A stretch of DNA of 64,000 nucleotides from Gammaproteobacteria bacterium (GCA_016744065.1 JADGFA010000004.1:64559-128558), one strand, 5' to 3'; numbered from the stretch's first letter, positions 10,578 through 23,775 are shown. Notes: generated from the sequence alone by a model not told the origin. Numbers and translations are program-made.

Positions 10578-11051
10578 ATGACATTATGTTTAAATAAAAA
10601 AGCACCTGCTTTCACAGCTGATGCCACGGGTGAACAGACCCTTAGCCTGAAAGACTTTAAAGGGAAAAATCTGATAATATATTTCTACCCAAAGGATAAT
10701 ACCCCTGGCTGCACTCAGGAAGGCCAGGACTTTCGAGACCATTACACTCAATTTAAACGCGCTAAAACAGCTATCCTGGGCGTTTCCCGTGATTCAGTTC
10801 GGGTTCACACTAACTTTAAAGCCAAGCACGAATTCCCCTTTGATTTACTTTCTGACCCAAATGAGGAGCTGTGTAAATTATTTGATGTTATTCATCTTAA
10901 AAAAAATTACGGAAAAGAATATATGGGCATAGTACGCAGTACTTTTTTAATTGATTCTAAAGGTGTATTACAAGAAAAATGGCTAAATGTAAGGGTTAAA
11001 GGGCATGTAGAAGAAGTCCTGTCAGCAACCAGACAATACAAACCAGAATAA
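10578..11051 (+). CDS. bcp: Thioredoxin-dependent thiol peroxidase (peroxiredoxin Q/Bcp)
   Basis: 157 aa. Peroxidatic Cys motif FYPKDNTPGCTQE. Adjacent to gcvR as in E. coli. Confidence 0.85.
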   Translation: MTLCLNKKAPAFTADATGEQTLSLKDFKGKNLIIYFYPKDNTPGCTQEGQDFRDHYTQFKRAKTAILGVSRDSVRVHTNFKAKHEFPFDLLSDPNEELCKLFDVIHLKKNYGKEYMGIVRSTFLIDSKGVLQEKWLNVRVKGHVEEVLSATRQYKPE

Positions 11052-11186
11052 TCTACAAGCATGCTCCCAATGTATACACCTAACGAAGAAAGGCTATAAC
11101 AATACGGCTTAACATCAGGTTACTGATTAATAAATCCTTAAAAAAATCATCACCTTTTTTGACCGACTAAGCCCATAAGTCGCAAC

Positions 11187-11208
11187 AATAATGATAATAA
11201 TTATCATT
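11187..11208. promoter_or_regulatory. Fur box (iron-responsive operator) upstream of feoA
   Basis: AATAATGATAATAATTATC matches the 19-bp Fur consensus GATAATGATAATCATTATC at 17 of 19 positions, about 60 nt upstream of the feoA start. Feo operons are classically Fur-repressed. Confidence 0.7.
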
Positions 11209-11268
11209 GCCAACTACGTTTATTTGAATTAAAATATTAATATAAATTAATTCTGGGTAATCTCATAC

Positions 11269-11520
11269 ATGGCACAGGCAATACAAAACACTGATTCAAG
11301 TTACTCTCTGGCTCATGCCATACCCGGTGATCTGGTACGTGTAATCTGTGTGAATACCAATAATCAACTTAAAAAGCGCCTGGTTAGTATGGGTGTATCT
11401 ATTAATTCACGCCTGCATATCATACAGCGTCGAGGCAATGCGACCGTTGTTGGCTTTGATGCCAGCCGTATTGCTATTGGTGCCGACATGTCTCAGCAAA
11501 TCATGGTGTGTGCAGTTTAA
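11269..11520 (+). CDS. feoA: Ferrous iron transport protein A
   Basis: 83 aa SH3-like FeoA pattern (...GDLVRVICVN...LVSMGVSINSRLHII...). Directly precedes feoB. Confidence 0.8.
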   Translation: MAQAIQNTDSSYSLAHAIPGDLVRVICVNTNNQLKKRLVSMGVSINSRLHIIQRRGNATVVGFDASRIAIGADMSQQIMVCAV

Positions 11521-11532
11521 ACCGAGCTTTTC

Positions 11533-13905
11533 ATGAGTAAAGAATGCTGCGATACAGATCAGGGTTCACCTGATAGCAAATCCCATTACACCGTTGGCCT
11601 GTTAGGCAACCCTAATTGCGGTAAATCGACCTTATTCAATACCCTCACCGGTTCTCGCCAGAAAATTGGCAATTGGCCCGGCGTCACCATTGACCGTAAA
11701 GTGGGTCAGTTCGAATACCAGAATATCCCTTTTGATGTTGTTGACCTGCCCGGTGTCTACTCACTGGATAACAGTGCTCGTTCACTTGATGAAAAGGTCA
11801 CCCGAGATTACATTCTTTCATCCGAACCAGATCTAATCATAAATGTACTAAACGCCTCCAATCTGGAGCGCAATCTGTATTTAAGCGGACAACTGCTGGA
11901 AATGCAGGTGCCTATGATCATTGCACTTAATATGATGGATCTGGCGGATTCTCATGATATTAAAATAGATCAACAGGCATTGGCACAAAAATTCGGCTGC
12001 CCTGTCGTTGCTATTACGGCACATAAAAACATTGGCACCGAAGAGTTAATGCAGGTTGTATTACAGGCTTCACAAAAGCGCCAGCCACCAACACAACAAC
12101 TTCCTTACTCAAAAGATATTGAGCAGGCTATTCTCGACCTGCTTGCGTCTCTACCTGAAAACCATCCATATTGTGAACATGTGAACTGTCGCTGGATGGC
12201 TGCACAAATTTTAGATAATGACACGGGTATTGAAGACTTCAAAACCATTGACCGGGCTATTCTCGACCGCGCACAGGAGTTACGTGAGAAATTAGAACAG
12301 CAGCACAATGAAGATATAGATATTCTACTTGCAGATTGTCGTTACGGTTTTGCCCGTAAAGTGACTGAACAAATCATTTCACGACCAGATGAGTACAAAT
12401 ACTCTCTGTCTGACCGTATTGATAATATTGTTTTAAACCGTTTTCTTGGTATTCCTGTTTTTCTCAGTGTCATTTATCTGATGTTTTTATTTACCATCAA
12501 TCTAGGTGGCGCTTTTATCGATTTTTTTGATATTGCTGCCGGCGCTATATTTATTGACGGTTTCGGTGAAATACTCACCGCTCTGGGATTTCCAGACTGG
12601 ATACGCGTCATACTTGCAAACGGACTGGGAGGTGGCTTTCAGGTCGTAGCAACCTTCATTCCTATTATTGGCTTTTTATATCTGTTTTTATCATTTGTTG
12701 AAAGCACAGGTTATATGATGCGTGCTGCTTTTGTCGTAGACCGCTTTATGCGCACCCTGGGGCTTCCTGGCAAGGCTTTTGTTCCATTAATTGTTGGTTT
12801 TGGCTGTAATGTACCTTCAATTATGGCAACTCGTACACTGGAAAATCACCGTGAACGTATTATTACCGTCATGATGGCACCCTTTATGTCCTGTGGTGCA
12901 CGCCTGTCAGTATACGCTCTATTTGCTGCTGCATTTTTTCCTGAAGGTGGCCAGAATATCGTTTTCTTACTCTACATTGTCGGTATTCTTTTTGCTGTTT
13001 TCACTGCCTTTATTATTAAATCAACTTTACTACCTGGCGAAGCCTCACCTTTCCTGATGGAGCTACCAACATACCATGTACCTAAAACCCGTGATGTGCT
13101 AATACGCACCTGGTCACGCCTGAAAGGTTTTCTACTAGATGCAGGCAAAATTATCATTTTAATGGTGCTGGTTATTAACTTCCTTAATTCCTGGGGTACC
13201 GATGGTAGTTTTGGCAACGAAGACCAGAAAGACTCTGTTCTTAGTGCAATAAGTCGAAGCATTACACCTGTATTCTCTCCTATGGGTATAGAAGAAGATA
13301 ACTGGCCAGCAACTGTAGGTATCTTTACCGGTATATTAGCCAAAGAAGTAGTTGTAGGCACACTGGATGCCATTTATTCACAAATGGATCAACCCGCAGC
13401 AGGCACAACTGAAGAAGCCGAATTTTCACTTGGCGACTCACTAAATGAGGCCTTGCAAACTATCCCCGATAATTTACTGGATGTGCTCAATAACCTGACT
13501 GATCCCCTGGGATTCAATGTACTGGACAGCACCTCAGATCAAAATGCAGCTGCAGCTGAGCAGGATGTAGATACCGCAACATTTGGTGCAATGGTAAAAC
13601 GTTTTGATGGTCAAACAGGGGCTTTTGCTTACCTGTTATTTATATTGCTTTATGCTCCCTGCGTTGCCGCAACCGCTGCGATCTACCGCGAAGCAGGGGC
13701 ACGCTGGATGTGGTTTGCACTTGCCTGGAGCACGGGTATGGCATGGTCAGCATCGACTCTGTTTTATCAGTTAGCACGATTTAATCAACACCCCGCCTCA
13801 TCTATCGCCTGGATAAGTGCTATTCTAATTGCAATTACGCTTGCTATTGGTTACATGCGATATACCGGTCGTGCAGACCAGAAGCTGACAGAAGTCTCAA
13901 CATGA
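11533..13905 (+). CDS. feoB: Ferrous iron transporter FeoB (G-protein domain plus Gate-motif permease)
   Basis: 790 aa. G1 motif GNPNCGKSTLFN, G3 motif DLPGVYS, then a polytopic membrane domain with nucleoside-recognition/Gate repeats. Confidence 0.95.
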   Translation: MSKECCDTDQGSPDSKSHYTVGLLGNPNCGKSTLFNTLTGSRQKIGNWPGVTIDRKVGQFEYQNIPFDVVDLPGVYSLDNSARSLDEKVTRDYILSSEPDLIINVLNASNLERNLYLSGQLLEMQVPMIIALNMMDLADSHDIKIDQQALAQKFGCPVVAITAHKNIGTEELMQVVLQASQKRQPPTQQLPYSKDIEQAILDLLASLPENHPYCEHVNCRWMAAQILDNDTGIEDFKTIDRAILDRAQELREKLEQQHNEDIDILLADCRYGFARKVTEQIISRPDEYKYSLSDRIDNIVLNRFLGIPVFLSVIYLMFLFTINLGGAFIDFFDIAAGAIFIDGFGEILTALGFPDWIRVILANGLGGGFQVVATFIPIIGFLYLFLSFVESTGYMMRAAFVVDRFMRTLGLPGKAFVPLIVGFGCNVPSIMATRTLENHRERIITVMMAPFMSCGARLSVYALFAAAFFPEGGQNIVFLLYIVGILFAVFTAFIIKSTLLPGEASPFLMELPTYHVPKTRDVLIRTWSRLKGFLLDAGKIIILMVLVINFLNSWGTDGSFGNEDQKDSVLSAISRSITPVFSPMGIEEDNWPATVGIFTGILAKEVVVGTLDAIYSQMDQPAAGTTEEAEFSLGDSLNEALQTIPDNLLDVLNNLTDPLGFNVLDSTSDQNAAAAEQDVDTATFGAMVKRFDGQTGAFAYLLFILLYAPCVAATAAIYREAGARWMWFALAWSTGMAWSASTLFYQLARFNQHPASSIAWISAILIAITLAIGYMRYTGRADQKLTEVST

Positions 13906-14123
13906 TTTTAACTGAAATCAAAGACTACCTTAAAATTAGAGGCCAGGCTCCATTACGTGACATGGCACTGGAATTTAAAATGGAACAGGATGCCCTGCGC
14001 CCTATTCTTGAACACTGGAAAGCAAAAGGTAAAATAATACAATTACCCCAGGGTACGGGCTGTAACGGCGGTTGCCACAGTTGTGCACCTGAAACCATTG
14101 AGCTTTATCAATGGGTTGATTAA
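13902..14123 (+). CDS. feoC: FeoC-like transcriptional regulator (winged helix with Cys cluster)
   Basis: 73 aa. Overlaps the feoB stop by 4 nt. LTEIKDYLKIRGQAPLRDMALEF followed by CNGGCHSCAP resembles E. coli FeoC ([23 protein letters not shown]...CLSGSCKSCP). Confidence 0.7.
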   Translation: MILTEIKDYLKIRGQAPLRDMALEFKMEQDALRPILEHWKAKGKIIQLPQGTGCNGGCHSCAPETIELYQWVD

Positions 14124-14527
14124 AAAATCATCAACTGACGGCTATCAACGCTTTATCAAAAAATAAAAACTCTCTCCTTTTTTTCAAATATATAAACTGT
14201 AAAAACAAGCCGTCATATAATTCTCTTCGATCTAAACTACCTTTATTTTCAGATATGCCGGCCCCTGCTCATGACAAACATAAAATAAATAAGCCAATTA
14301 CATCAAATCCTGACGACACACAGCAGACTTAGATAAAAATTTCATTTCCATAAAAAATGACACCCCAATAATAAAACGCCTCATAAGAAAACTCAAAAGA
14401 TAATCATTTATAAACTAAAAACCTAAATAAGAAGTGTTTATATTTGTATTAATATTATCTATAATATCTCTTTTATAAATACACTGATCCTGAAAATTAA
14501 TTCAGATAACACTGGAGATTAGTACAA

Positions 14528-15661
14528 ATGACTTTATGTAAGACCTTAACCGGTGCACTTGTTGCCGCTGCACTCACCTCAACCAGCTCTTTTGCTGCCG
14601 ATCTTAACGACTTACAAAAACAAATTGATGAATTAAAAGTAGAAAACAGTCAGATTTTAGCTAATCTGGAAAACACATCCAGTTCTGCCCATAGCTCAAA
14701 CACAACAACAATTGGTGGTTATGGTGAGCTACATTACAACAACCTGAGCTCAGATATAACAAGCGCAGATAAGAAATCAATCGATTTCCATCGTTTTGTT
14801 TTATTCTTTGGTCATGAATTTAATAATGACATTCGTTTTTACTCTGAATTTGAGTTAGAGCACTCAATCGCTGGTGAAAGTAAAAATGGTGAAGTTGAAC
14901 TTGAACAGGCCTATATTGAATTTGATACCAGTGACAGCTCAAATATCAAAGCCGGTATATTTCTTATTCCTGTTGGGCAAATTAATGAAACCCATGAACC
15001 TCCTGCTTTCTACGGTGTCGAACGTAACCCGGTTGAAAAGAATATTATTCCAGCAACATGGTGGGAAGCAGGTGCCATGTACTCTGCCAATACATCAAGT
15101 GGCATAAGTTATGACCTGGCCATTCACTCTGGACTTTCCAATAACGAAGGTAAGATTCGTGATGCAAGGCAAAAAGTATCCAAAGCACCTGCTGATTCCC
15201 TGGCTTATACAGCGCGCATTAAATACACAGGTATTACTGGCCTTGAACTCGCAGGCACCATTCAGTATCAAAGTGATTTTTCACAGGGAACAGGTACGAC
15301 AGGCGATGCCGAAGATGGCACATTACTAGAGGCTCACGCTGTTTACACAACCGGTGGTTTGAAATTAAGTGCTTTATACGCAAGCTGGGATATCAATTTT
15401 GAGGGTGGCACAACCACAGGAAAGGATACTCAGAACGGTTCAATCATTGAAGCCTCTTACAAATTTAACAGTAAATGGGGAATATTCGCTCGTCAAAATA
15501 ACTGGACTAATGATGATGGCGCAACAGATAAAGCACAAACCGATATCGGTGTTAACTATTGGCCCCATGAAAGCGTTGTATTGAAAGCCGATTACCAGGC
15601 ACAAAACGATGAAGCTGATGACTTCGATGGTATTAACCTCGGTGTGGGTTACCAGTTCTAA
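14528..15661 (+). CDS. Outer-membrane porin with N-terminal coiled-coil segment
   Basis: Signal peptide ...SSFAA. Short coiled coil DLNDLQKQIDELKVENSQ. Remainder has amphipathic beta-strand periodicity and ends with the aromatic OMP signature ...NLGVGYQF. Located directly after feoABC. Confidence 0.55.
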   Translation: MTLCKTLTGALVAAALTSTSSFAADLNDLQKQIDELKVENSQILANLENTSSSAHSSNTTTIGGYGELHYNNLSSDITSADKKSIDFHRFVLFFGHEFNNDIRFYSEFELEHSIAGESKNGEVELEQAYIEFDTSDSSNIKAGIFLIPVGQINETHEPPAFYGVERNPVEKNIIPATWWEAGAMYSANTSSGISYDLAIHSGLSNNEGKIRDARQKVSKAPADSLAYTARIKYTGITGLELAGTIQYQSDFSQGTGTTGDAEDGTLLEAHAVYTTGGLKLSALYASWDINFEGGTTTGKDTQNGSIIEASYKFNSKWGIFARQNNWTNDDGATDKAQTDIGVNYWPHESVVLKADYQAQNDEADDFDGINLGVGYQF

Positions 15662-15725
15662 CAAATTCCATGTAAGACTCCTGAGCACCGTAAATTGGTC
15701 CTTACAAAAAGCTCGCTGGAATATT

Positions 15726-15753
15726 GGGAAGCACTAAAGTGCTTCCCTTTTCT
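15726..15753 (+). terminator. Rho-independent terminator after the porin gene
   Basis: GGGAAGCAC-TAAA-GTGCTTCCC perfect 9-bp stem followed by TTTTCT. Confidence 0.7.
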
Positions 15754-15811
15754 AATTTTAACAAATGATATTCCTACTGGTATTCAGGCATACACCTGAT
15801 AAAATCAGCCA

Positions 15812-16333
15812 ATGATTTATAAATTACTGTTTACATGTTTACTAATAGCGACTGGAAGTATCCACGCAAAAGGCACTTATCAACAGCCCGATGCATTTAT
15901 AGCCGAAGCGTTTACCCAGCAACCAAAACCACAGGTCATCTGGATAAAAGATGATTTACGTCATCAAATTGAACAAATTTTACAACATAAATATAAAGCC
16001 AGGCGCATTCGTTACTGGCAACAAAAAAAACGCAGCGTCTGGATATTAGAAGAAATTGGTAAAAAGAAGCCCATCACCGTGGGGGTTATTATTGATGCAA
16101 ACAAAATATCCCATTTAAAAGTACTGGTTTTCAGAGAAACCCGAGGCTGGGAGGTTCGATACCCTTTTTTTACTAAACAATTTAATCAACTATCACTTGA
16201 AGCGGATCATACTTTAAGTGAGTCAATTGATGGCATATCCGGTGCAACGCTTTCTGTACGTGCCCTGGATAAAATGGCCCGTATTGCCTTACTATTAAAT
16301 AATTATATTCAACAACAAGCTCATACAATATGA
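15812..16333 (+). CDS. Extracytoplasmic FMN-binding domain protein (ApbE-type flavinylation motif)
   Basis: 173 aa. Signal peptide MIYKLLFTCLLIATGSIHA. FMN_bind signature SIDGISGATLSVRA, matching the Dxx(S/T)GA(T/S) flavinylation motif. Confidence 0.65.
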   Translation: MIYKLLFTCLLIATGSIHAKGTYQQPDAFIAEAFTQQPKPQVIWIKDDLRHQIEQILQHKYKARRIRYWQQKKRSVWILEEIGKKKPITVGVIIDANKISHLKVLVFRETRGWEVRYPFFTKQFNQLSLEADHTLSESIDGISGATLSVRALDKMARIALLLNNYIQQQAHTI

Positions 16334-17097
16334 GCAGACGAAAAAAAGCTTTTCCATTTTTTTTATGGCATAGACGTATTGGCCTGGCTGCACTTATACT
16401 CGTTTGCATTCTGTCTATTACCGGAATTATGCTTAATCATACAGAAGAGCTAAAACTGGATGAAACAACAATTGAATCCAGCTTCATTCTAAACTGGTAT
16501 AACATTAATCCTCTAGGCACGCCTGTAAATTACAACTTGAATGACACCTGGATTAGTCAGTGGAACCAACAACTGTTTTTTAATGGAAAAAGTTTAACTA
16601 CACATAAAGAAAAATTGAAGGGAGCTATACAGATTAATGACATTATTGCAGTTGCACTGGAAAATGTTATTTTACTGCTTGATAATGAAGGTGAATTAAT
16701 TGAAATCATGTCCGCAGGCACTGATTTTCCCATTAAAAAAATAGGCTTCTTAAACAAAAAAATAAGTTTACTTGATTCACAAAATAATATTTATATTTCA
16801 GATACAAATTTTACCGCCTGGCATAAACACAAACAGTCGCCTTTAAACTGGGCGACACCCGAAAACCTGTCCGATAAAAAAATAACAACACTGCAACAGG
16901 CATTTCGTGGGCAAGGCTTAAACCTTGAAAAAGTTATTTTAGACTTACATTCAGGGCGAATCTTTAACTCAAAGTGGGGCATTTACATAATGGATGCCAG
17001 CGCTGTTTTAATGATATTACTGGGCTTTAGCGGTTTATGGGTCTGGTGGTCACGCAAACTCAAAATAAACAAAAAACATTCTAAAAAAAATTTTTAA
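16330..17097 (+). CDS. PepSY-associated TM helix protein
   Basis: 255 aa. Start overlaps the stop of the FMN-binding gene by 4 nt. N-terminal WHRRIGLAALILVCILSITGIMLNH (the PepSY_TM motif with conserved His) and C-terminal TM segment LHSGRIF...MDASAVLMILLGFSGLWVWW. Confidence 0.65.
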   Translation: MSRRKKAFPFFLWHRRIGLAALILVCILSITGIMLNHTEELKLDETTIESSFILNWYNINPLGTPVNYNLNDTWISQWNQQLFFNGKSLTTHKEKLKGAIQINDIIAVALENVILLLDNEGELIEIMSAGTDFPIKKIGFLNKKISLLDSQNNIYISDTNFTAWHKHKQSPLNWATPENLSDKKITTLQQAFRGQGLNLEKVILDLHSGRIFNSKWGIYIMDASAVLMILLGFSGLWVWWSRKLKINKKHSKKNF

Positions 17098-17132
17098 TTA
17101 AAAATATAACTTAAATTACCGGACTAAGCTCG

Positions 17133-18182
17133 TTACACCTTTACCTCTGGCCAGGCATTAATCACAGCCTGAATCAACGTTGCCAACGGAATAGCAAAAA
17201 ACACCCCCCAGACACCCCACAGGCCACCAAATACCAATACAGACATAATAATCGCTGCAGGATGCATATTAACCACCTCTGAAAAAAGCAGGGGTACCAG
17301 AACATTACCATCTAAAAACTGCACCGTTAGATAAACTAGCATAATATATAAAAAATCAGACCCCAGACCAAACTGAAAATAAGCAACTAATGCAACTGGG
17401 ATGGTTACTGCAACAGCACCAACATAAGGAATAATAACAGAGAGCCCAACAAACAAACTCAATAATGCCGCATACTGAAGATCAAATATTTTAAGTGGAA
17501 TATAGGTCGCTATACCAACAACAACAACTTCAAATAGTTTACCTCGTATATAACTTCCAATTTTTTTATCAACATCTGTCCATACTTTAGTTGCTAAACC
17601 ATCTTCTTTTGGTAAAAAACGACTAAGCCATTTAAGGATAATTCTCTTATCCTTTAAAAAGAAAAATACAAGCAACGGCACAACCACCATATACACAAGC
17701 ACCGTAAATAAATTCACCACCGATGATAAAGATTGAGAAACAACAAGCTGACCAACCGAAGCTATCTCAGAATTAATATGTAACACGATATCTTCAATTT
17801 GCACTTCTGATATAAAAGGATAATTCTGCGGTAAGCTCACTAACAGGCTTTGCCCTTTGGCAAGCATATTGGGCACTTCAAGAAAAAATTGCGCCATCTG
17901 TTTTGATATTAGAGGAGATAAGCCAAGCATCAGAACCAATAAGGTTACAACAAAACCGACTACAACCATACTCACAGCCAGAACATGAGGAATTTTTAAA
18001 TTGCACAGTCTCCACACAACCCCCTCAAGTACATAAGCAATAACCACAGCCGCGATAACAGGCGTCAGCACATTGCCCATAAAACCAATCAACGCAAAAC
18101 CAAAAATCAGCATTAAGGTAAGAATAACCGCCTGAGGATCTGAAAAATGTTGCTTATACCAATTTCGTAAAACTTTAATCAC
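17133..18182 (-). CDS. perM: AI-2E family transporter, PerM (YfgO)-like
   Basis: 349 aa. Aligns along its length with E. coli PerM (WYKQHFSDPQAV.../...FFLKDK...YIRGK...FGGLWGVWGVFFAIPLATLIQAVINAWP). Confidence 0.8.
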   Translation of the reverse strand: MIKVLRNWYKQHFSDPQAVILTLMLIFGFALIGFMGNVLTPVIAAVVIAYVLEGVVWRLCNLKIPHVLAVSMVVVGFVVTLLVLMLGLSPLISKQMAQFFLEVPNMLAKGQSLLVSLPQNYPFISEVQIEDIVLHINSEIASVGQLVVSQSLSSVVNLFTVLVYMVVVPLLVFFFLKDKRIILKWLSRFLPKEDGLATKVWTDVDKKIGSYIRGKLFEVVVVGIATYIPLKIFDLQYAALLSLFVGLSVIIPYVGAVAVTIPVALVAYFQFGLGSDFLYIMLVYLTVQFLDGNVLVPLLFSEVVNMHPAAIIMSVLVFGGLWGVWGVFFAIPLATLIQAVINAWPEVKV

Positions 18183-18543
18183 TATGCTTTACCAAAGTCG
18201 CTTTAAATTTACTTTCAAATAATACTTCCAGATCATCTATTACATCAACCGCTGACTTACCCTGCATCATGTGCTGCATCATAAACTCTGAAGTTTCGTT
18301 TAATAATTCTTTTTGCAAAATCATTGGATAATTTTTCTTTAGACGTTTAATCGCTGCAACCACACTTTCTTTTTCTGGCCTTTCAATACCGAGAGGTTCG
18401 GTTATTTTCGATACAGGTTCAGGTGCGCGAGATTTTAAAAACTCAGCAAACTCAAACAACATAAACTGATCTTTTTCGGGAAGATTTCCAAAAATTATAG
18501 ATAAAGACTGAGATGAAGGTTTCAATATTTCTCTCCTGAGCAA
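18175..18543 (-). CDS. Hypothetical protein
   Basis: 122 aa ORF whose stop overlaps the perM start by 8 nt, suggesting translational coupling. No recognisable motif. Confidence 0.4.
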   Translation of the reverse strand: MLRREILKPSSQSLSIIFGNLPEKDQFMLFEFAEFLKSRAPEPVSKITEPLGIERPEKESVVAAIKRLKKNYPMILQKELLNETSEFMMQHMMQGKSAVDVIDDLEVLFESKFKATLVKHSD

Positions 18544-18767
18544 ACATATATGTGTTCTGAAAAAGTCGCTTGAACATTATGAAATCAGATGACTCTTCAG
18601 ATATTAATACAACATAACACGTTCAGGAAACAGACCATTTTCCAGAATCAATATAATAGAAAAATCATTGGCCGTTTTATAGAAACTGACTTCCCTTGCT
18701 CATTGCAGCCAGTCCCTACAAAAAATCGTGATTTATAAGTAACAGTCTTACCGAACACCTGGAAAAA

Positions 18768-19670
18768 TCATTTACCCGGATGGGCAATACAATACTGCTT
18801 GGCAAACTCCAGTAACTCTTCCATCGCCCGAACTTTAAATTTATGACGCTGATGAACAAATGAAAATGGTCTTTCTAGCGGTGGGTCTAATGGTATAGCA
18901 ACTAAAGTATTCAGTTTTATTTCTTTCTGCACCGTTGACTGAGACATGATAGATACTCCCATACCCGCCTCCACTGCACTTTTAATCGACTCCGGACTAC
19001 CTAACTCAAGGCATACATTAGGCTCTTCTTTAATGCCGTTATCCTGTAAGTATTCAGCAATAACTTCACGGGTACCTGAGCCTTCTTCACGACAGATAAA
19101 TGGGTATGAAATAATTTGCTGACTTGAAATGGCATCAAAATGAGTTAATTCATGCTCAGGCGGCATAATAACGACCAACTGATCCATACGACACACATCA
19201 ACCTGTAAGTTTTTATTACTAACAGATGCTTCAACAATGCCTAAATCAATAATATTATTTTCCACCATAGAAACAATACCATCGGTATTCGATACCTTCA
19301 GACGAATATTCACTTCAGGATTTTTAGTCTTAAAATCACCCAATAAAAATGGCAACATATATTCAGCTATTGTAGTGCTGGCTCCCAAAGTAACCACACC
19401 GCTCACATCACCTGTCATTTCACGAATAGAGTGCTCCATTTCATCATAGAGCTCAAAGATACGACCAGAGAAACTATAAACACGCTGACCAGCCTCGGTC
19501 AGGCTTACTCGATTATGCGTTCGGTCAAATAATCGGGTATTAAAATATTCTTCTAACTGACGAATTTGAAAAGTGACCGCCGGTTGAGTCATGTGTAGAG
19601 CATCCGCTGCCTTGGTAAAATTCAGTAACTTGGCTACTGTATGAAATACTTTTAGTCGTCTATCTGCCAT
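18768..19670 (-). CDS. LysR-family transcriptional regulator
   Basis: N-terminal HTH LKVFHTVAKLLNFTKAADALHMTQPAVTFQIRQLEE and C-terminal substrate-binding domain. Divergent from the DUF4124-MIF gene pair. Confidence 0.85.
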   Translation of the reverse strand: MADRRLKVFHTVAKLLNFTKAADALHMTQPAVTFQIRQLEEYFNTRLFDRTHNRVSLTEAGQRVYSFSGRIFELYDEMEHSIREMTGDVSGVVTLGASTTIAEYMLPFLLGDFKTKNPEVNIRLKVSNTDGIVSMVENNIIDLGIVEASVSNKNLQVDVCRMDQLVVIMPPEHELTHFDAISSQQIISYPFICREEGSGTREVIAEYLQDNGIKEEPNVCLELGSPESIKSAVEAGMGVSIMSQSTVQKEIKLNTLVAIPLDPPLERPFSFVHQRHKFKVRAMEELLEFAKQYCIAHPGK

Positions 19671-20909: not shown

Positions 20910-22121
20910 TTAACCAGGTCGACCATCAACCCGTGCTGTAACCAGCATGGGTGCATAAAAATAAAAATAACAGGCAAATGCCAGCACCCAGAGGCCACCA
21001 GCAATAGCTGTACTCCACTGCACAAGCTCAGGTAACCAGGCAGGAATAATAACTCGTACAACTGCGGCTAAAAAAATAAAAATATAGGCAACGCTTATTA
21101 AGCGGGGAGGATTAAGCTGACGCCCAGTATGACCCAGTGTAACTCTCGAAATCATAGAAAGTATCATGCCACCAATAGCACCTACAGTAATACTGTGTAA
21201 AGCGGCACTAATATTAGCCATTACGCCCATACTGTATAGTGCTAATAAACCAAAACCCAGCGGTATAAAACTATACGCTATATGTAACGACCATAATAAA
21301 GGCTCTGATTTACAGTACTGCCCACCCCAGCGGGAAGAGCGCCAGGCATTTGCCAGTGCCGCTATAAAGGAAACACTAAATAATAATATTGACGGTACAT
21401 TATCAAACCCCAAAAAAGCAATAATCAACAATAAAATAATGCTTAAAATGCTAATAATTTCCAGGTATTTAACAGGTGGTTTTTTAATACAACGTGTTGT
21501 ATTGGCGGTGAATGCAGGTATAACACGACCACCTAAGATAGTGATGATTAAAGAGAAAAGAATAATCGCGCCATGTAATGCCTGCGTTGCTATGTGATGC
21601 TGATTATAAATCACAGCCCAGTGGCTACTGGCATTCAATAAACTTAAAACAAATAAAATAGGCACAAACATCAGATTACGCCACTGTTTCACTTTTATTA
21701 CCGGATAAGCCATCGCAATAGCAGCAAACAATAAAAACATAACATCACCTGCTGCAATTAACTCAACAGGAACATTGTAAGAAAAACCAAAAGCTAAAAA
21801 AAATCGCCCTGATAACCACATTAAAACCAGTACCGCTAGCGGTTTACCTCTTATACCCATAACACCCGTCCATGACTGAACGGCCGTTAACAAAAAACCA
21901 ACAACAATAGCGGAGCCAAAACCAAACAACATTTCATGCCCATGCCACCAGACAGGCCCACCATAAGGTAGCCAGGTAGAAGCGCTAATCCAGAAATAAA
22001 CCCACCAGGCTATAGCCAGAATAGAAAACAGAGTTCCCCCTAAAAACAATGGCCGAAAAGCCAGACGAAATAAAGGAGGAATAGCTAATGCTATACGGCT
22101 GTCATCTATATTAAGAGGCAT
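20910..22121 (-). CDS. nnrS: NnrS family protein (heme-copper membrane protein of the NO-stress response)
   Basis: 403 aa polytopic membrane protein. N-terminal LFRLAFRPLFLGGTLFSILAIAWW...WWHGHEMLFGF block with conserved His residues typical of NnrS. Confidence 0.8.
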   Translation of the reverse strand: MPLNIDDSRIALAIPPLFRLAFRPLFLGGTLFSILAIAWWVYFWISASTWLPYGGPVWWHGHEMLFGFGSAIVVGFLLTAVQSWTGVMGIRGKPLAVLVLMWLSGRFFLAFGFSYNVPVELIAAGDVMFLLFAAIAMAYPVIKVKQWRNLMFVPILFVLSLLNASSHWAVIYNQHHIATQALHGAIILFSLIITILGGRVIPAFTANTTRCIKKPPVKYLEIISILSIILLLIIAFLGFDNVPSILLFSVSFIAALANAWRSSRWGGQYCKSEPLLWSLHIAYSFIPLGFGLLALYSMGVMANISAALHSITVGAIGGMILSMISRVTLGHTGRQLNPPRLISVAYIFIFLAAVVRVIIPAWLPELVQWSTAIAGGLWVLAFACYFYFYAPMLVTARVDGRPG

Positions 22122-22554: not shown

Positions 22555-23775
22555 TTATTTAATTGATTTTAAGTATTTTTCCAGAGTAGTTAATTGATCA
22601 CCGGACAAGTCGAGCCGCCGATGTGAGCGAATACTTCCATCACGAAGCAGTCCAGAAATTTTTTCTGCTTCTATTTCAAATTCAGATGCATTACTCGAGT
22701 GGCAATAGACACAATTATCTTCATATAGCTTACGCCCCTCCTCTATTGCCTTTCCAGGCGTCTCATTAAGAGGCTGAAAAGACGTTTCAAGATTATCCAG
22801 GCTTTGATAAAAGCTACCTTTATCCCAAAAATCAGGCTCTGAGCAACCTAAGCAGGGATGTCCTGCTTCAACAGGGAAACTGGTGCCCTTATTCCATTTA
22901 TGCACTGCACAGGCATTATGAGTTACCGGGCCTTTACATCCCAACTTATACAGACACCAGCCTTTACGCGCCCCTTCATCATCAAAACTTTCTGCAAACT
23001 TCTCATCCTGATAAAAATGATAGCGGGGGCAACGTTCATGCACCGTGTTAGCATAAAAATTGACCGGCCGCTTCTGATCATCCAGTTCGGGAAATCGGTC
23101 AAAAACAAGGTAATGAGCCAACACACCACTGATGGCAACGGGAAGCGGTGGGCAACCGGGAATATTAATCAGCATTTTTTTTGATATAAGGCCTCTTTCC
23201 ATGAGCTGCCCAACACTTTTTGCTCCCGTTGGATCAGGTTTCGCCGCGGGTAACCCTCCATAAGCGGCGCAGCTTCCTATTGCCATCACCGCTGCGGCAC
23301 CAGCACTGCACTCCTGTAATATATCCAGGTTAGTCCTACCCGCAATAGTTGAATAAACACCACCCTCTGCAACTGGAACTGAACCATCAACAATCAACAG
23401 GTATTGCCCATAGAATTTCTTCATTACATCTAATCGGGCCATTTCTGCTGCTTCACCTGAAGCAGCCTGCAAAGTATGGTGATAATCAAGTGAGATATAA
23501 TCAAACATCAAATCTTCGATGCCTGGTGTGTGTGAACGGGTAAGCGACTCAGTACAGCCCGTACACTCCTGAAATGAAAGCCAGATAACAGAAGGTCGAG
23601 TTGCATGGCGCAATTTTTCAGACAACACAGGAATGACACTGACAGGCAGGGCTAATAAAGAAGCCATTACCGAACAGTATTTCAGAAATGACCGTCGGCT
23701 TACTCCCTTTTGAGACAGGTAAGCTTCAAAAGTAATTGCTTTAGATTTTTTTTCTACCAATATAAACCACAACAA
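22555..23775 (-). CDS. [NiFe]-hydrogenase small-subunit homolog (Tat signal, three Fe-S cluster motifs) with extra C-terminal cytochrome c-like CxxCH domain; no large-subunit gene nearby
   Basis: Tat leader [23 protein letters not shown] aligns to E. coli HyaA ([23 protein letters not shown]). Proximal-cluster motifs [16 protein letters not shown] and PGCPP. NiFe_hyd_SSU_C-like medial and distal cluster ligands CPRYHF...[17 protein letters not shown]...[13 protein letters not shown]. C-terminal extension [13 protein letters not shown]...[17 protein letters not shown] resembles a class I cytochrome c. Confidence 0.8.
   Translation of the reverse strand: [406 protein letters not shown]

Follow-up and report, generated by a model that had tools for sequence, protein, structure and literature searches.

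The 64,000-nucleotide stretch of Gammaproteobacteria bacterium DNA analyzed here (GCA_016744065.1 JADGFA010000004.1:64559-128558; hereafter, the window) carries the iron transporter genes feoABC, followed by genes for a porin, a secreted FMN_bind protein, and a PepSY_TM protein. Open reading frame (ORF) listing and profile scans revealed six co-directional genes running from feoA to the PepSY_TM gene on the + strand. The first three are feoA (11269-11520; Pfam FeoA, E = 6.8e-12), feoB (11533-13905; Pfam FeoB_N, E = 6e-63, with Gate and FeoB_C; NCBIfam FeoB equivalog, 853.8 bits vs a cut-off of 683, E = 1e-256), and feoC (13902-14123; Pfam FeoC, E = 3.6e-21), whose first 4 nt coincide with the end of feoB. 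With the FeoA, FeoB (G-domain and Gate permease), and FeoC profiles all matched, the transporter is a FeoABC system. The next three genes encode an outer-membrane porin of 377 aa (14528-15661; Porin_O_P, E = 2.2e-9, 37.5 bits vs a cut-off of 20.9; also Porin_4), a secreted FMN_bind protein of 173 aa (15812-16333; PF04205, E = 1.1e-9, 39.2 bits vs a cut-off of 22, with weak RnfG matches), and a half-size PepSY_TM protein of 255 aa (16330-17097; PF03929, E = 4.8e-13, 50 bits; PF16357, 36 bits). This gene set, which an initial annotation of the DNA had interpreted as a ferric-reductase and ferrous-uptake island, is present in full and with significant family matches. Local synteny is identical in the closest named relative, an endosymbiont whose host is the tubeworm Galathealinum brachiosum. 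We judge it reasonably likely that the porin, FMN_bind, and PepSY_TM genes make up a single conserved transcription unit under iron repression, an envelope-spanning iron-acquisition module that delivers Fe(II) to an importer, here FeoABC.

To define the conserved unit, relatives of the FMN_bind protein were sought by a degenerate-pattern search in one genome per GTDB species, which yielded at least 590 species with confirmed relatives, and the best 80 loci were taken for study. When gene order was counted over 81 loci by tblastn with the window proteins, the porin, FMN_bind, and PepSY_TM genes kept this order on a common strand in 74, and five of the seven exceptions were contig ends. Porins at 55-60% identity again sit in triads, as do all four of the distant members found with the PepSY_TM profile that were looked up. 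Neighbor clustering identified no universally conserved gene at these loci besides the triad. feoABC lies directly upstream (feoB within 1.5 kb) in only 8 of the 55 loci with sufficient flank, six of them from the lineage of the window itself, so that the region is no fixed feo island. The locus comparison indicates that the conserved unit is the porin-FMN_bind-PepSY_TM triad and not feo plus the triad. In the window's lineage, a block from ACT-Bcp to AI-2E-LysR is kept, and the slot within it is filled by feoABC or by other genes (YcaO, acyltransferase). Horizontal acquisition as an island was considered and rejected, since the GC content resembles that of the flanks and the triad lies inside a conserved synteny block.

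The PepSY_TM protein was modeled as a monomer with AlphaFold (predicted local distance difference test [pLDDT] score of 86). The model contains two transmembrane (TM) helices, TM1 (residues 10-36) and TM2 (217-254), separated by twelve strands and two short helices; the twelve strands form three four-stranded propeller blades (66-167). Foldseek searches with the model returned beta-propellers, the best-fitting being fragments that assemble into closed propellers (6r5z, 6r5y). His14, His37, and His207 are 97-100% conserved in 73 orthologues, and His14 lies in TM1, in agreement with the histidine-bearing N-terminal helix noted previously. In a comparison with FoxB (7ABW), the WHRRIG and LDLHSGR motifs each matched two places in FoxB, a marginal match (E = 0.8). 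The protein aligns to both FoxB halves and therefore corresponds to one FoxB repeat unit. The FoxB/PiuB-type label in the initial annotation thus needs revision, as this is a half-size, two-TM, propeller-bearing form and not a four-TM protein. Published PepSY_TM proteins reportedly have at least four TM helices and alpha/beta PepSY domains (PMC13038864), or three TM helices (PMC8238504); the model of the window's protein, with two TM helices and three blades, shows no single chain with four or more TM helices and two periplasmic PepSY domains. The profile gathers 819 clusters (50% identity) at E ≤ 1e-30, nearly all of 240-270 aa, with a few longer or fused forms among the top homologues. From the model, we infer that the protein probably homodimerizes, placing a four-helix, FoxB-like heme bundle under a six-bladed propeller.

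The FMN_bind protein carries the sequence DGISGAT reported by the initial annotation, within which the flavinylation site S143-G144-A145-T146 is invariant in 20 homologues and conforms to the ApbE target motif [S/T]GA[S/T] (PMC8238504). Its secretion, also claimed earlier, is consistent with a predicted signal-peptidase I site after A19, a residue that is likewise invariant in the 20 homologues; the protein is therefore predicted to be soluble and periplasmic. The FMN_bind profile found no sequence-level match among solved structures. The suggested search for apbE was run by tblastn with E. coli Ftp on the window and the 80 genome-scan loci, and the window contained no match. ApbE adjoins the triad in three loci (L065 and L093/L094); since the window and most other loci lack it, flavinylation in this genome would require an apbE located elsewhere. 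The FMN_bind gene ends, and the PepSY_TM gene begins, within a shared ATGA.

The porin comprises a signal peptide, an optional coiled coil (residues 25-49), a 16-strand barrel, an L3 loop (147-178), and an acidic, histidine-containing lining. Its structural model (pLDDT 80) shows an N-terminal helix (19-49), 16 strands, a long L3 loop, and GYQF at the C-terminus, matching the coiled-coil N-terminus and GYQF ending described in the initial annotation. The coiled-coil segment (window 14528-14674) is cleanly deleted in 9 of 35 aligned homologues and is therefore an optional module that is not essential to the barrel. Foldseek ranked OprP first (2o4v, E = 1e-13, TM-score 0.65) and general porins next, whereas the porin profile gave no sequence-level PDB match. 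The earlier suggestion of an OprB/DcaP-like porin was rejected, as both the Pfam matches (Porin_O_P/Porin_4) and the fold place it with OprO/OprP and general porins. The sequence is conserved to a degree unusual among porins, and the L3 loop is nearly invariant, with 25 of its 32 positions conserved at 90% or more. The mature protein contains 52 Asp and Glu residues, 24 Lys and Arg residues, and 9 His residues. Its conserved polar strand faces hold 13 acidic, 6 basic, and 5 His residues in addition to E122/124/126, and conserved residues at lumen-facing strand positions include E67, H69, E107, E109, E111, and E122/124/126. OprP (2O4V) reportedly owes its anion selectivity to an arginine ladder and a lysine cluster. 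Judged from composition and strand periodicity, no such basic, anion-selective lumen was found in the window porin, and these properties suggest the opposite, a cation-selective and possibly metal-selective channel.

Control by iron is suggested by sites upstream of both feoA and the porin gene. A Fur box array upstream of feoA, AATAATGATAATAATTATCATTGCC (11187-11211, no strand assigned), matches the 19-bp consensus at 17 of 19 positions (11187-11205) with overlapping 16/19 matches, where 0.06 matches are expected by chance, and abuts the -35 element of a promoter-like site (11207-11235). The near-perfect Fur box of the initial annotation is thus real and lies at the promoter. A 19-bp operator with the consensus GAGAATnATTTGCATTTGC recurs 25-135 bp upstream of the porin start across the loci; on the other strand it reads GCAAAT GCAAAT GATTCT C, a Fur-style hexamer array. 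In leave-one-out scoring with a position weight matrix (PWM), 87% of porin upstream regions exceeded the 95th percentile (8.8 bits) of 423 control intergenic regions. Strong sites, defined as those of at least 16 bits, numbered 92 in about 1.1 Mb of fetched loci; nearly all lie upstream of the porin, and most of the others precede feoA (L010, L012, L088) or bfr (L069). Because the same motif precedes feoA and bfr, and because the feoA Fur box ties for the top score (11.9 bits) when the window is scanned with the porin-operator PWM, we read the operator as a local form of the Fur box that may be bound by Fur itself.

In the window, the porin operator itself is eroded. The site orthologous by alignment, AAGAAGTGTTTATATTTGT (14429-14447, no strand assigned), overlaps the -35 element of the porin promoter-like site (TTTATA-17-TATAAT, 14437-14465, + strand; the -10 element is conserved in relatives) and scores 4.8 bits, so that the triad's own promoter here lacks a recognizable Fur-type operator. 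Four of the seven mismatches are changes from G/C to A/T, and the corresponding sites of L004 and L005 are near-consensus; relaxed regulation, or AT drift within the lineage, could account for the decay. Close relatives, such as L004 and L088, retain both the feoA box and the porin operator. A weak candidate for a residual Fur half-site, GATAATCATTTAT (14399-14411, no strand assigned), holds a 10-bp exact Fur core in a 19-mer context of 12/19 and aligns with AAGAATCA/AAGAATGA in relatives. A classical Fur consensus in the porin promoter was rejected, as the best match across the intergenic region was 12/19, a chance-level score given a control median of 11. The inverted repeat previously noted at 14449-14470 does exist as the palindrome ATATTAT-CT-ATAATAT; it is not the operator, consists of the spacer and the -10 element, and is not conserved in relatives.

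Transcription across the triad was assessed from its intergenic regions. The terminator reported at 15726-15753 was recovered as a hairpin with a T-run (15726-15757, + strand; hairpin 15726-15747; 9-bp stem with 6 GC pairs), whereas the separate promoter that it had been taken to imply for the flavoprotein pair was not: no promoter-like site was seen in the porin-FMN_bind gap of the window, and no operator in that gap across the loci. Similar but non-homologous hairpins with T-runs occur between the two genes in 27 of 69 loci, and the gaps in the remaining loci are short; the median gap is 67 nt, and many measure less than 30 nt. An independent promoter for the pair was rejected on these grounds. 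The arrangement instead suggests one transcription unit, in which the hairpin may serve as an internal attenuator setting a high porin to low reductase ratio; alternatively, it can be read as an mRNA-stabilizing element. No terminator was detected in the feoC-porin spacer, and no credible Rfam match to a riboswitch or small RNA was found in this 404-bp spacer or elsewhere in 10900-17300. Given the eroded operator and the lack of a detected feoC-porin terminator, iron control of the triad in this genome may rely on read-through from the feoA promoter, or may be relaxed.

A further gene shares the operator-containing intergenic region with the porin in some loci. This gene, cluster c12, has a secreted product (about 280 aa) that matches no Pfam family and ends in a Gln/Met-rich C-terminal tail, and is divergent from the porin in 14 loci (L017, L018, L025, L026, L030, L034, L035, L037, L052, L054, L059, L078, and others; for example, L034:7610-8452, - strand). 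Its product may be an additional member of the regulon.

Although feoABC is not a constant partner, Pfam-confirmed iron genes recur beside the triad in several unrelated arrangements. In some loci feoABC lies upstream on the same strand, and a distant feoB (29-34% identity) is divergent from or upstream of the porin in L046-L048. Genes divergent from the porin also include fur with feoB (L092), a cytochrome c-FTR1 fusion (L013, L024), and, in about ten loci, an Fe-S_biosyn protein gene. Ferritin or bacterioferritin genes adjoin the triad in L061, L064, and L069, Bfr-Bfd genes stand directly upstream in L090, and an SBP_bac_6 ATP-binding cassette (ABC) importer is encoded downstream in L038 and L069. 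In one locus (L015:119-4235), only 31 nt and no porin gene separate feoA-feoB-feoC from the FMN_bind-PepSY_TM pair behind it.

The link to Feo is most direct in fusions of PepSY_TM to FeoA, which were found in two separate cluster representatives, P0387 (364 aa) and P0433 (339 aa), with C-terminal FeoA domains scoring 40.7 and 54.1 bits, respectively (cut-off 23). P0387 is the third gene of a triad that adjoins fur-feoB. P0433 replaces feoA immediately upstream of feoB (L096:807-4024; also L097 and L098), in a locus that encodes MamC, MamS/MamX, and an MFS-Ferric_reduct (MamZ-like) protein and has no adjacent porin or FMN_bind gene; it looks like a magnetosome-associated feo operon of a magnetotactic bacterium. 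FeoA is a cytoplasmic protein, and the positive-inside rule places both PepSY_TM termini in the cytoplasm; the fusion is therefore topologically sensible. A literature search combining FeoA and PepSY returned no title dealing with such a fusion.

Taken together, the conserved operator, the iron and ApbE neighbors, and the FeoA fusions strengthen the central idea of the initial annotation, in which an extracytoplasmic flavin/PepSY_TM electron-transfer pair serves iron uptake through Feo. We propose the following mechanism. At low iron, the trimeric-type, 16-strand, acidic, and histidine-containing porin would let iron cations, most likely Fe(II), pass through the outer membrane. PepSY_TM probably homodimerizes into a four-helix bundle that would hold b-type hemes through His14, His37, and His207 beneath a six-bladed propeller cap, and would supply the periplasm with electrons drawn from the quinol pool or from the cytoplasmic side. 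The FMN_bind protein, whose production would be translationally coupled to the PepSY_TM gene, would receive a covalent flavin at Thr146 from an ApbE whose gene lies elsewhere; it would take up these electrons and reduce Fe(III), or re-reduce iron oxidized at oxic-anoxic interfaces. An inner-membrane importer would then take over the resulting Fe(II); in this genome it is FeoABC, whose genes lie immediately upstream behind a strong Fur box. In lineages with a C-terminal FeoA domain on PepSY_TM, the reductase is probably docked physically to FeoB. As a bolder and tentative extension, the triad and Feo might constitute a TonB-independent, envelope-spanning pathway in which a metal-selective acidic porin lets iron in, a dimeric half-FoxB heme protein with a closed six-bladed propeller and its covalently flavinylated partner hold that iron in the ferrous state, and the reductase docks on FeoB via FeoA as a reductase-transporter supercomplex; such docking could have become fixed as the PepSY_TM::FeoA fusion in some lineages, including the magnetosome-cluster feoB operon.

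Several observations weigh against the proposed Fe(II)-delivery module. feoABC adjoins the triad in only about 15% of loci, mostly in one lineage. Erosion has left this genome's porin operator at 12/19 and 4.8 bits, compared with 23-30 bits in close relatives, and iron control of the triad here would need read-through from the feoA promoter. ApbE was found neither in the 64-kb window nor in 79 of the 80 genome-scan loci. The PepSY_TM model is a monomer, so the dimer, the hemes, and propeller closure are extrapolated from it, and porin selectivity is deduced from composition and strand periodicity for a protein with no sequence-level PDB match. Of the other partners, FTR1 and the SBP_bac_6 ABC importer, which resembles ferric-iron systems, do not obviously need Fe(II). 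Finally, a literature search found no experimental study of any triad member.

One alternative is that the triad is a general periplasmic iron-redox module that takes in iron through the porin and sets its redox state for any importer or store (Feo, FTR1, a ferric ABC system, bacterioferritin), with the feoABC adjacency a lineage-specific accident of synteny. The low count of feoABC neighbors (8 of 55), the retention of the ACT-Bcp to AI-2E-LysR block with or without feoABC, and the presence of FTR1, SBP_bac_6 ABC, and Bfr neighbors elsewhere all fit such a module. It is harder to reconcile with the PepSY_TM::FeoA fusions, with the independent arrival of a distant feoB as a neighbor (L046-L048, L092), and with L015, where feoABC directly abuts FMN_bind-PepSY_TM. 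We consider this interpretation plausible, if on the unlikely side; it differs from the favored model only in specificity. Another alternative concerns the substrate. The PepSY_TM superfamily is functionally diverse and has a copper-linked subfamily, in which CrpH has been proposed to reduce Cu(II) for heme-copper oxidase assembly (PMC13038864), and iron is the putative substrate of the present family; the pair might reduce another periplasmic substrate, such as Cu(II) or a different oxidant, its iron regulation being incidental. This we regard as improbable, as the operator is of the Fur type and of the same motif class as those before feoA and bfr, the recurrent neighbors are iron and not copper genes, and the FeoA fusions again point to iron.

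The direction of electron flow could also be reversed, with the porin and flavoprotein oxidizing periplasmic or extracellular Fe(II), or another donor, and passing the electrons to the membrane in an energy-yielding or detoxifying process of these chemolithotrophs and methanotrophs. Record titles indicate that the carriers are mostly sulfur oxidizers and methanotrophs of redox interfaces, and FTR1-type partners, which oxidize Fe(II) during uptake, adjoin the triad as a cytochrome c-FTR1 fusion in two loci. However, a repressor site of the Fur type implies that low iron induces the genes, whereas energy-yielding iron oxidation would call for the reverse; Feo imports Fe(II); and no multiheme or Cyc2-like component was seen among the annotated neighbors, which together make inward flow quite improbable. 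The most skeptical reading, to which we attach hardly any credence, is that no functional unit exists and that a phosphate porin of the OprO/OprP type and an unrelated pair merely follow feoABC. NCBI and JGI do label some of the porin homologues as OprO/OprP phosphate-selective, and a hairpin resembling a terminator stands between the porin gene and the pair. Mere adjacency, however, would not account for the same gene order in 74 of 81 loci across many lineages, for a single conserved operator located upstream of the porin, for a porin that is net acidic and not basic, or for the short porin-pair gaps in most loci. The copper, inward-flow, and mere-adjacency readings are thus disfavored by the operator, the neighbor spectrum, and the FeoA fusions.

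The surroundings of the six genes include further elements. Convergent with and downstream of the triad (17133-19670, - strand) lie genes for an AI-2E transporter, a 122-aa protein without a family match, and a LysR regulator, an arrangement kept in about 25 loci across a broad lineage; it appears to represent synteny only, and no functional link was found. More distally, a [NiFe]-hydrogenase small-subunit-like gene (22555-23775, - strand; Oxidored_q6 and NiFe_hyd_SSU_C), which has no adjoining large-subunit gene, is flanked by a 70-aa ORF, NnrS (20910-22121, - strand), and a DUF7843/Lnb_N gene. In the relative L004, a multiheme cytochrome gene occupies the position of this hydrogenase-like gene.

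Comparison with known systems places the triad closest to the PepSY-like flavinylated clusters of Meheust et al. 2021 (PMC8238504), which were proposed to be assimilatory iron reductases and are defined operationally by a PF03929 or PF16357 protein encoded in a cluster with an FMN-binding protein that has a signal peptide, or with ApbE; their secreted substrates carry the [S/T]GA[S/T] motif. In the window, a PF03929/PF16357 product adjoins a signal-peptide-bearing PF04205 protein with this motif, and by that operational definition the triad is a PepSY-like flavinylated system, a kind already known. The traits described for these systems, namely proposed iron reduction and assimilation, Fur control, and sometimes iron-transporter neighbors (PMC8238504, PMC12004947), agree with those found here; in Caulobacter, the Fur-regulated genes CCNA_03155-03159 are needed for, or contribute to, fitness under ethylenediaminetetraacetic acid (EDTA; PMC12004947). 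As described, however, such clusters mostly hold DUF2271/DUF4198 substrates, an in-cluster ApbE, and three-TM or NAD-binding proteins (PMC8238504), with VIT1 or TonB-type receptors as partners (PMC8238504, PMC12004947), and PMC8238504 makes no mention of Feo or porins. The triad, in contrast, combines a PF04205 substrate, an ApbE usually encoded elsewhere, a two-TM protein with a propeller fragment, and a porin as constant third gene; neither DUF2271 nor DUF4198 turned up in the window or in the genes that recur around the triad.

The membrane component resembles the FoxB (7ABW), FsrB, HiuB, and FpvG reductases in the HRxxG and LHxG histidine motifs that flank the TM helices. FsrB reduces periplasmic ferric siderophores for FeoAB (PMC10760861) and so shares the proposed role, periplasmic Fe(III) reduction feeding Feo; by description alone, V. 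cholerae VciB (cited in PMC8238504) shares that Feo-feeding role. FoxB-type proteins reportedly have at least four TM helices, alpha/beta PepSY domains, and a paired TonB-dependent receptor (PMC13038864), whereas the triad's protein is one repeat unit (two TM helices) with three blades and is partnered by a flavoprotein and a porin. The annotated recurrent neighbors included no TonB-dependent receptor, and the constant outer-membrane partner is the porin. The half-size, propeller-bearing architecture extends the FoxB family, and the magnetosome-cluster fusion ties FoxB-like PepSY_TM proteins to iron supply for biomineralization.

For the outer membrane, feoPABC of A. ferrooxidans (PMC1874648), in which feoABC and a porin gene are linked behind a Fur box confirmed by experiment, provides a precedent for a dedicated channel for Feo. 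The porin there, FeoP, belongs to the OprB family, is encoded ahead of feoABC, and has no flavoprotein or PepSY_TM partners; the window does not have this layout, with an OprB-family porin first in the feo operon, as its Porin_O_P-like porin is encoded after feoC and is part of the triad, not of feo. Pseudomonas OprP/OprO (2O4V, 4RJW) share the above-threshold Porin_O_P match and the 16-strand OprP-like barrel, and differ in that the window porin is net acidic with conserved Glu and His residues facing the lumen. By concept alone, the porin can be likened to MnoP of Bradyrhizobium japonicum (Hohle et al. 2011, cited in PMC6011978), a metal-regulated selective porin that feeds a divalent-cation importer and that differs in its metal, its regulator, and its lack of redox partners.

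We found no paper in the searchable literature that treats PepSY, FMN-binding, and porin proteins together, and the constant porin, the PF04205 substrate, the half-size propeller PepSY_TM, and the PepSY_TM::FeoA fusions appear not to have been described there. The module is widespread in sulfur-oxidizing and methanotrophic Gammaproteobacteria at redox interfaces, with at least 590 species and more than 800 clusters at 50% identity. It bears on two open questions, how Fe(II) crosses the outer membrane and how Feo is supplied with Fe(II) where oxygen is present, and offers testable candidates for both: a highly conserved acidic porin, and a flavin/heme relay that is sometimes fused to FeoA. Set beside these known systems, the unit most likely represents a variant, so far undescribed, of the systems that reduce iron in the periplasm to supply iron transporters.

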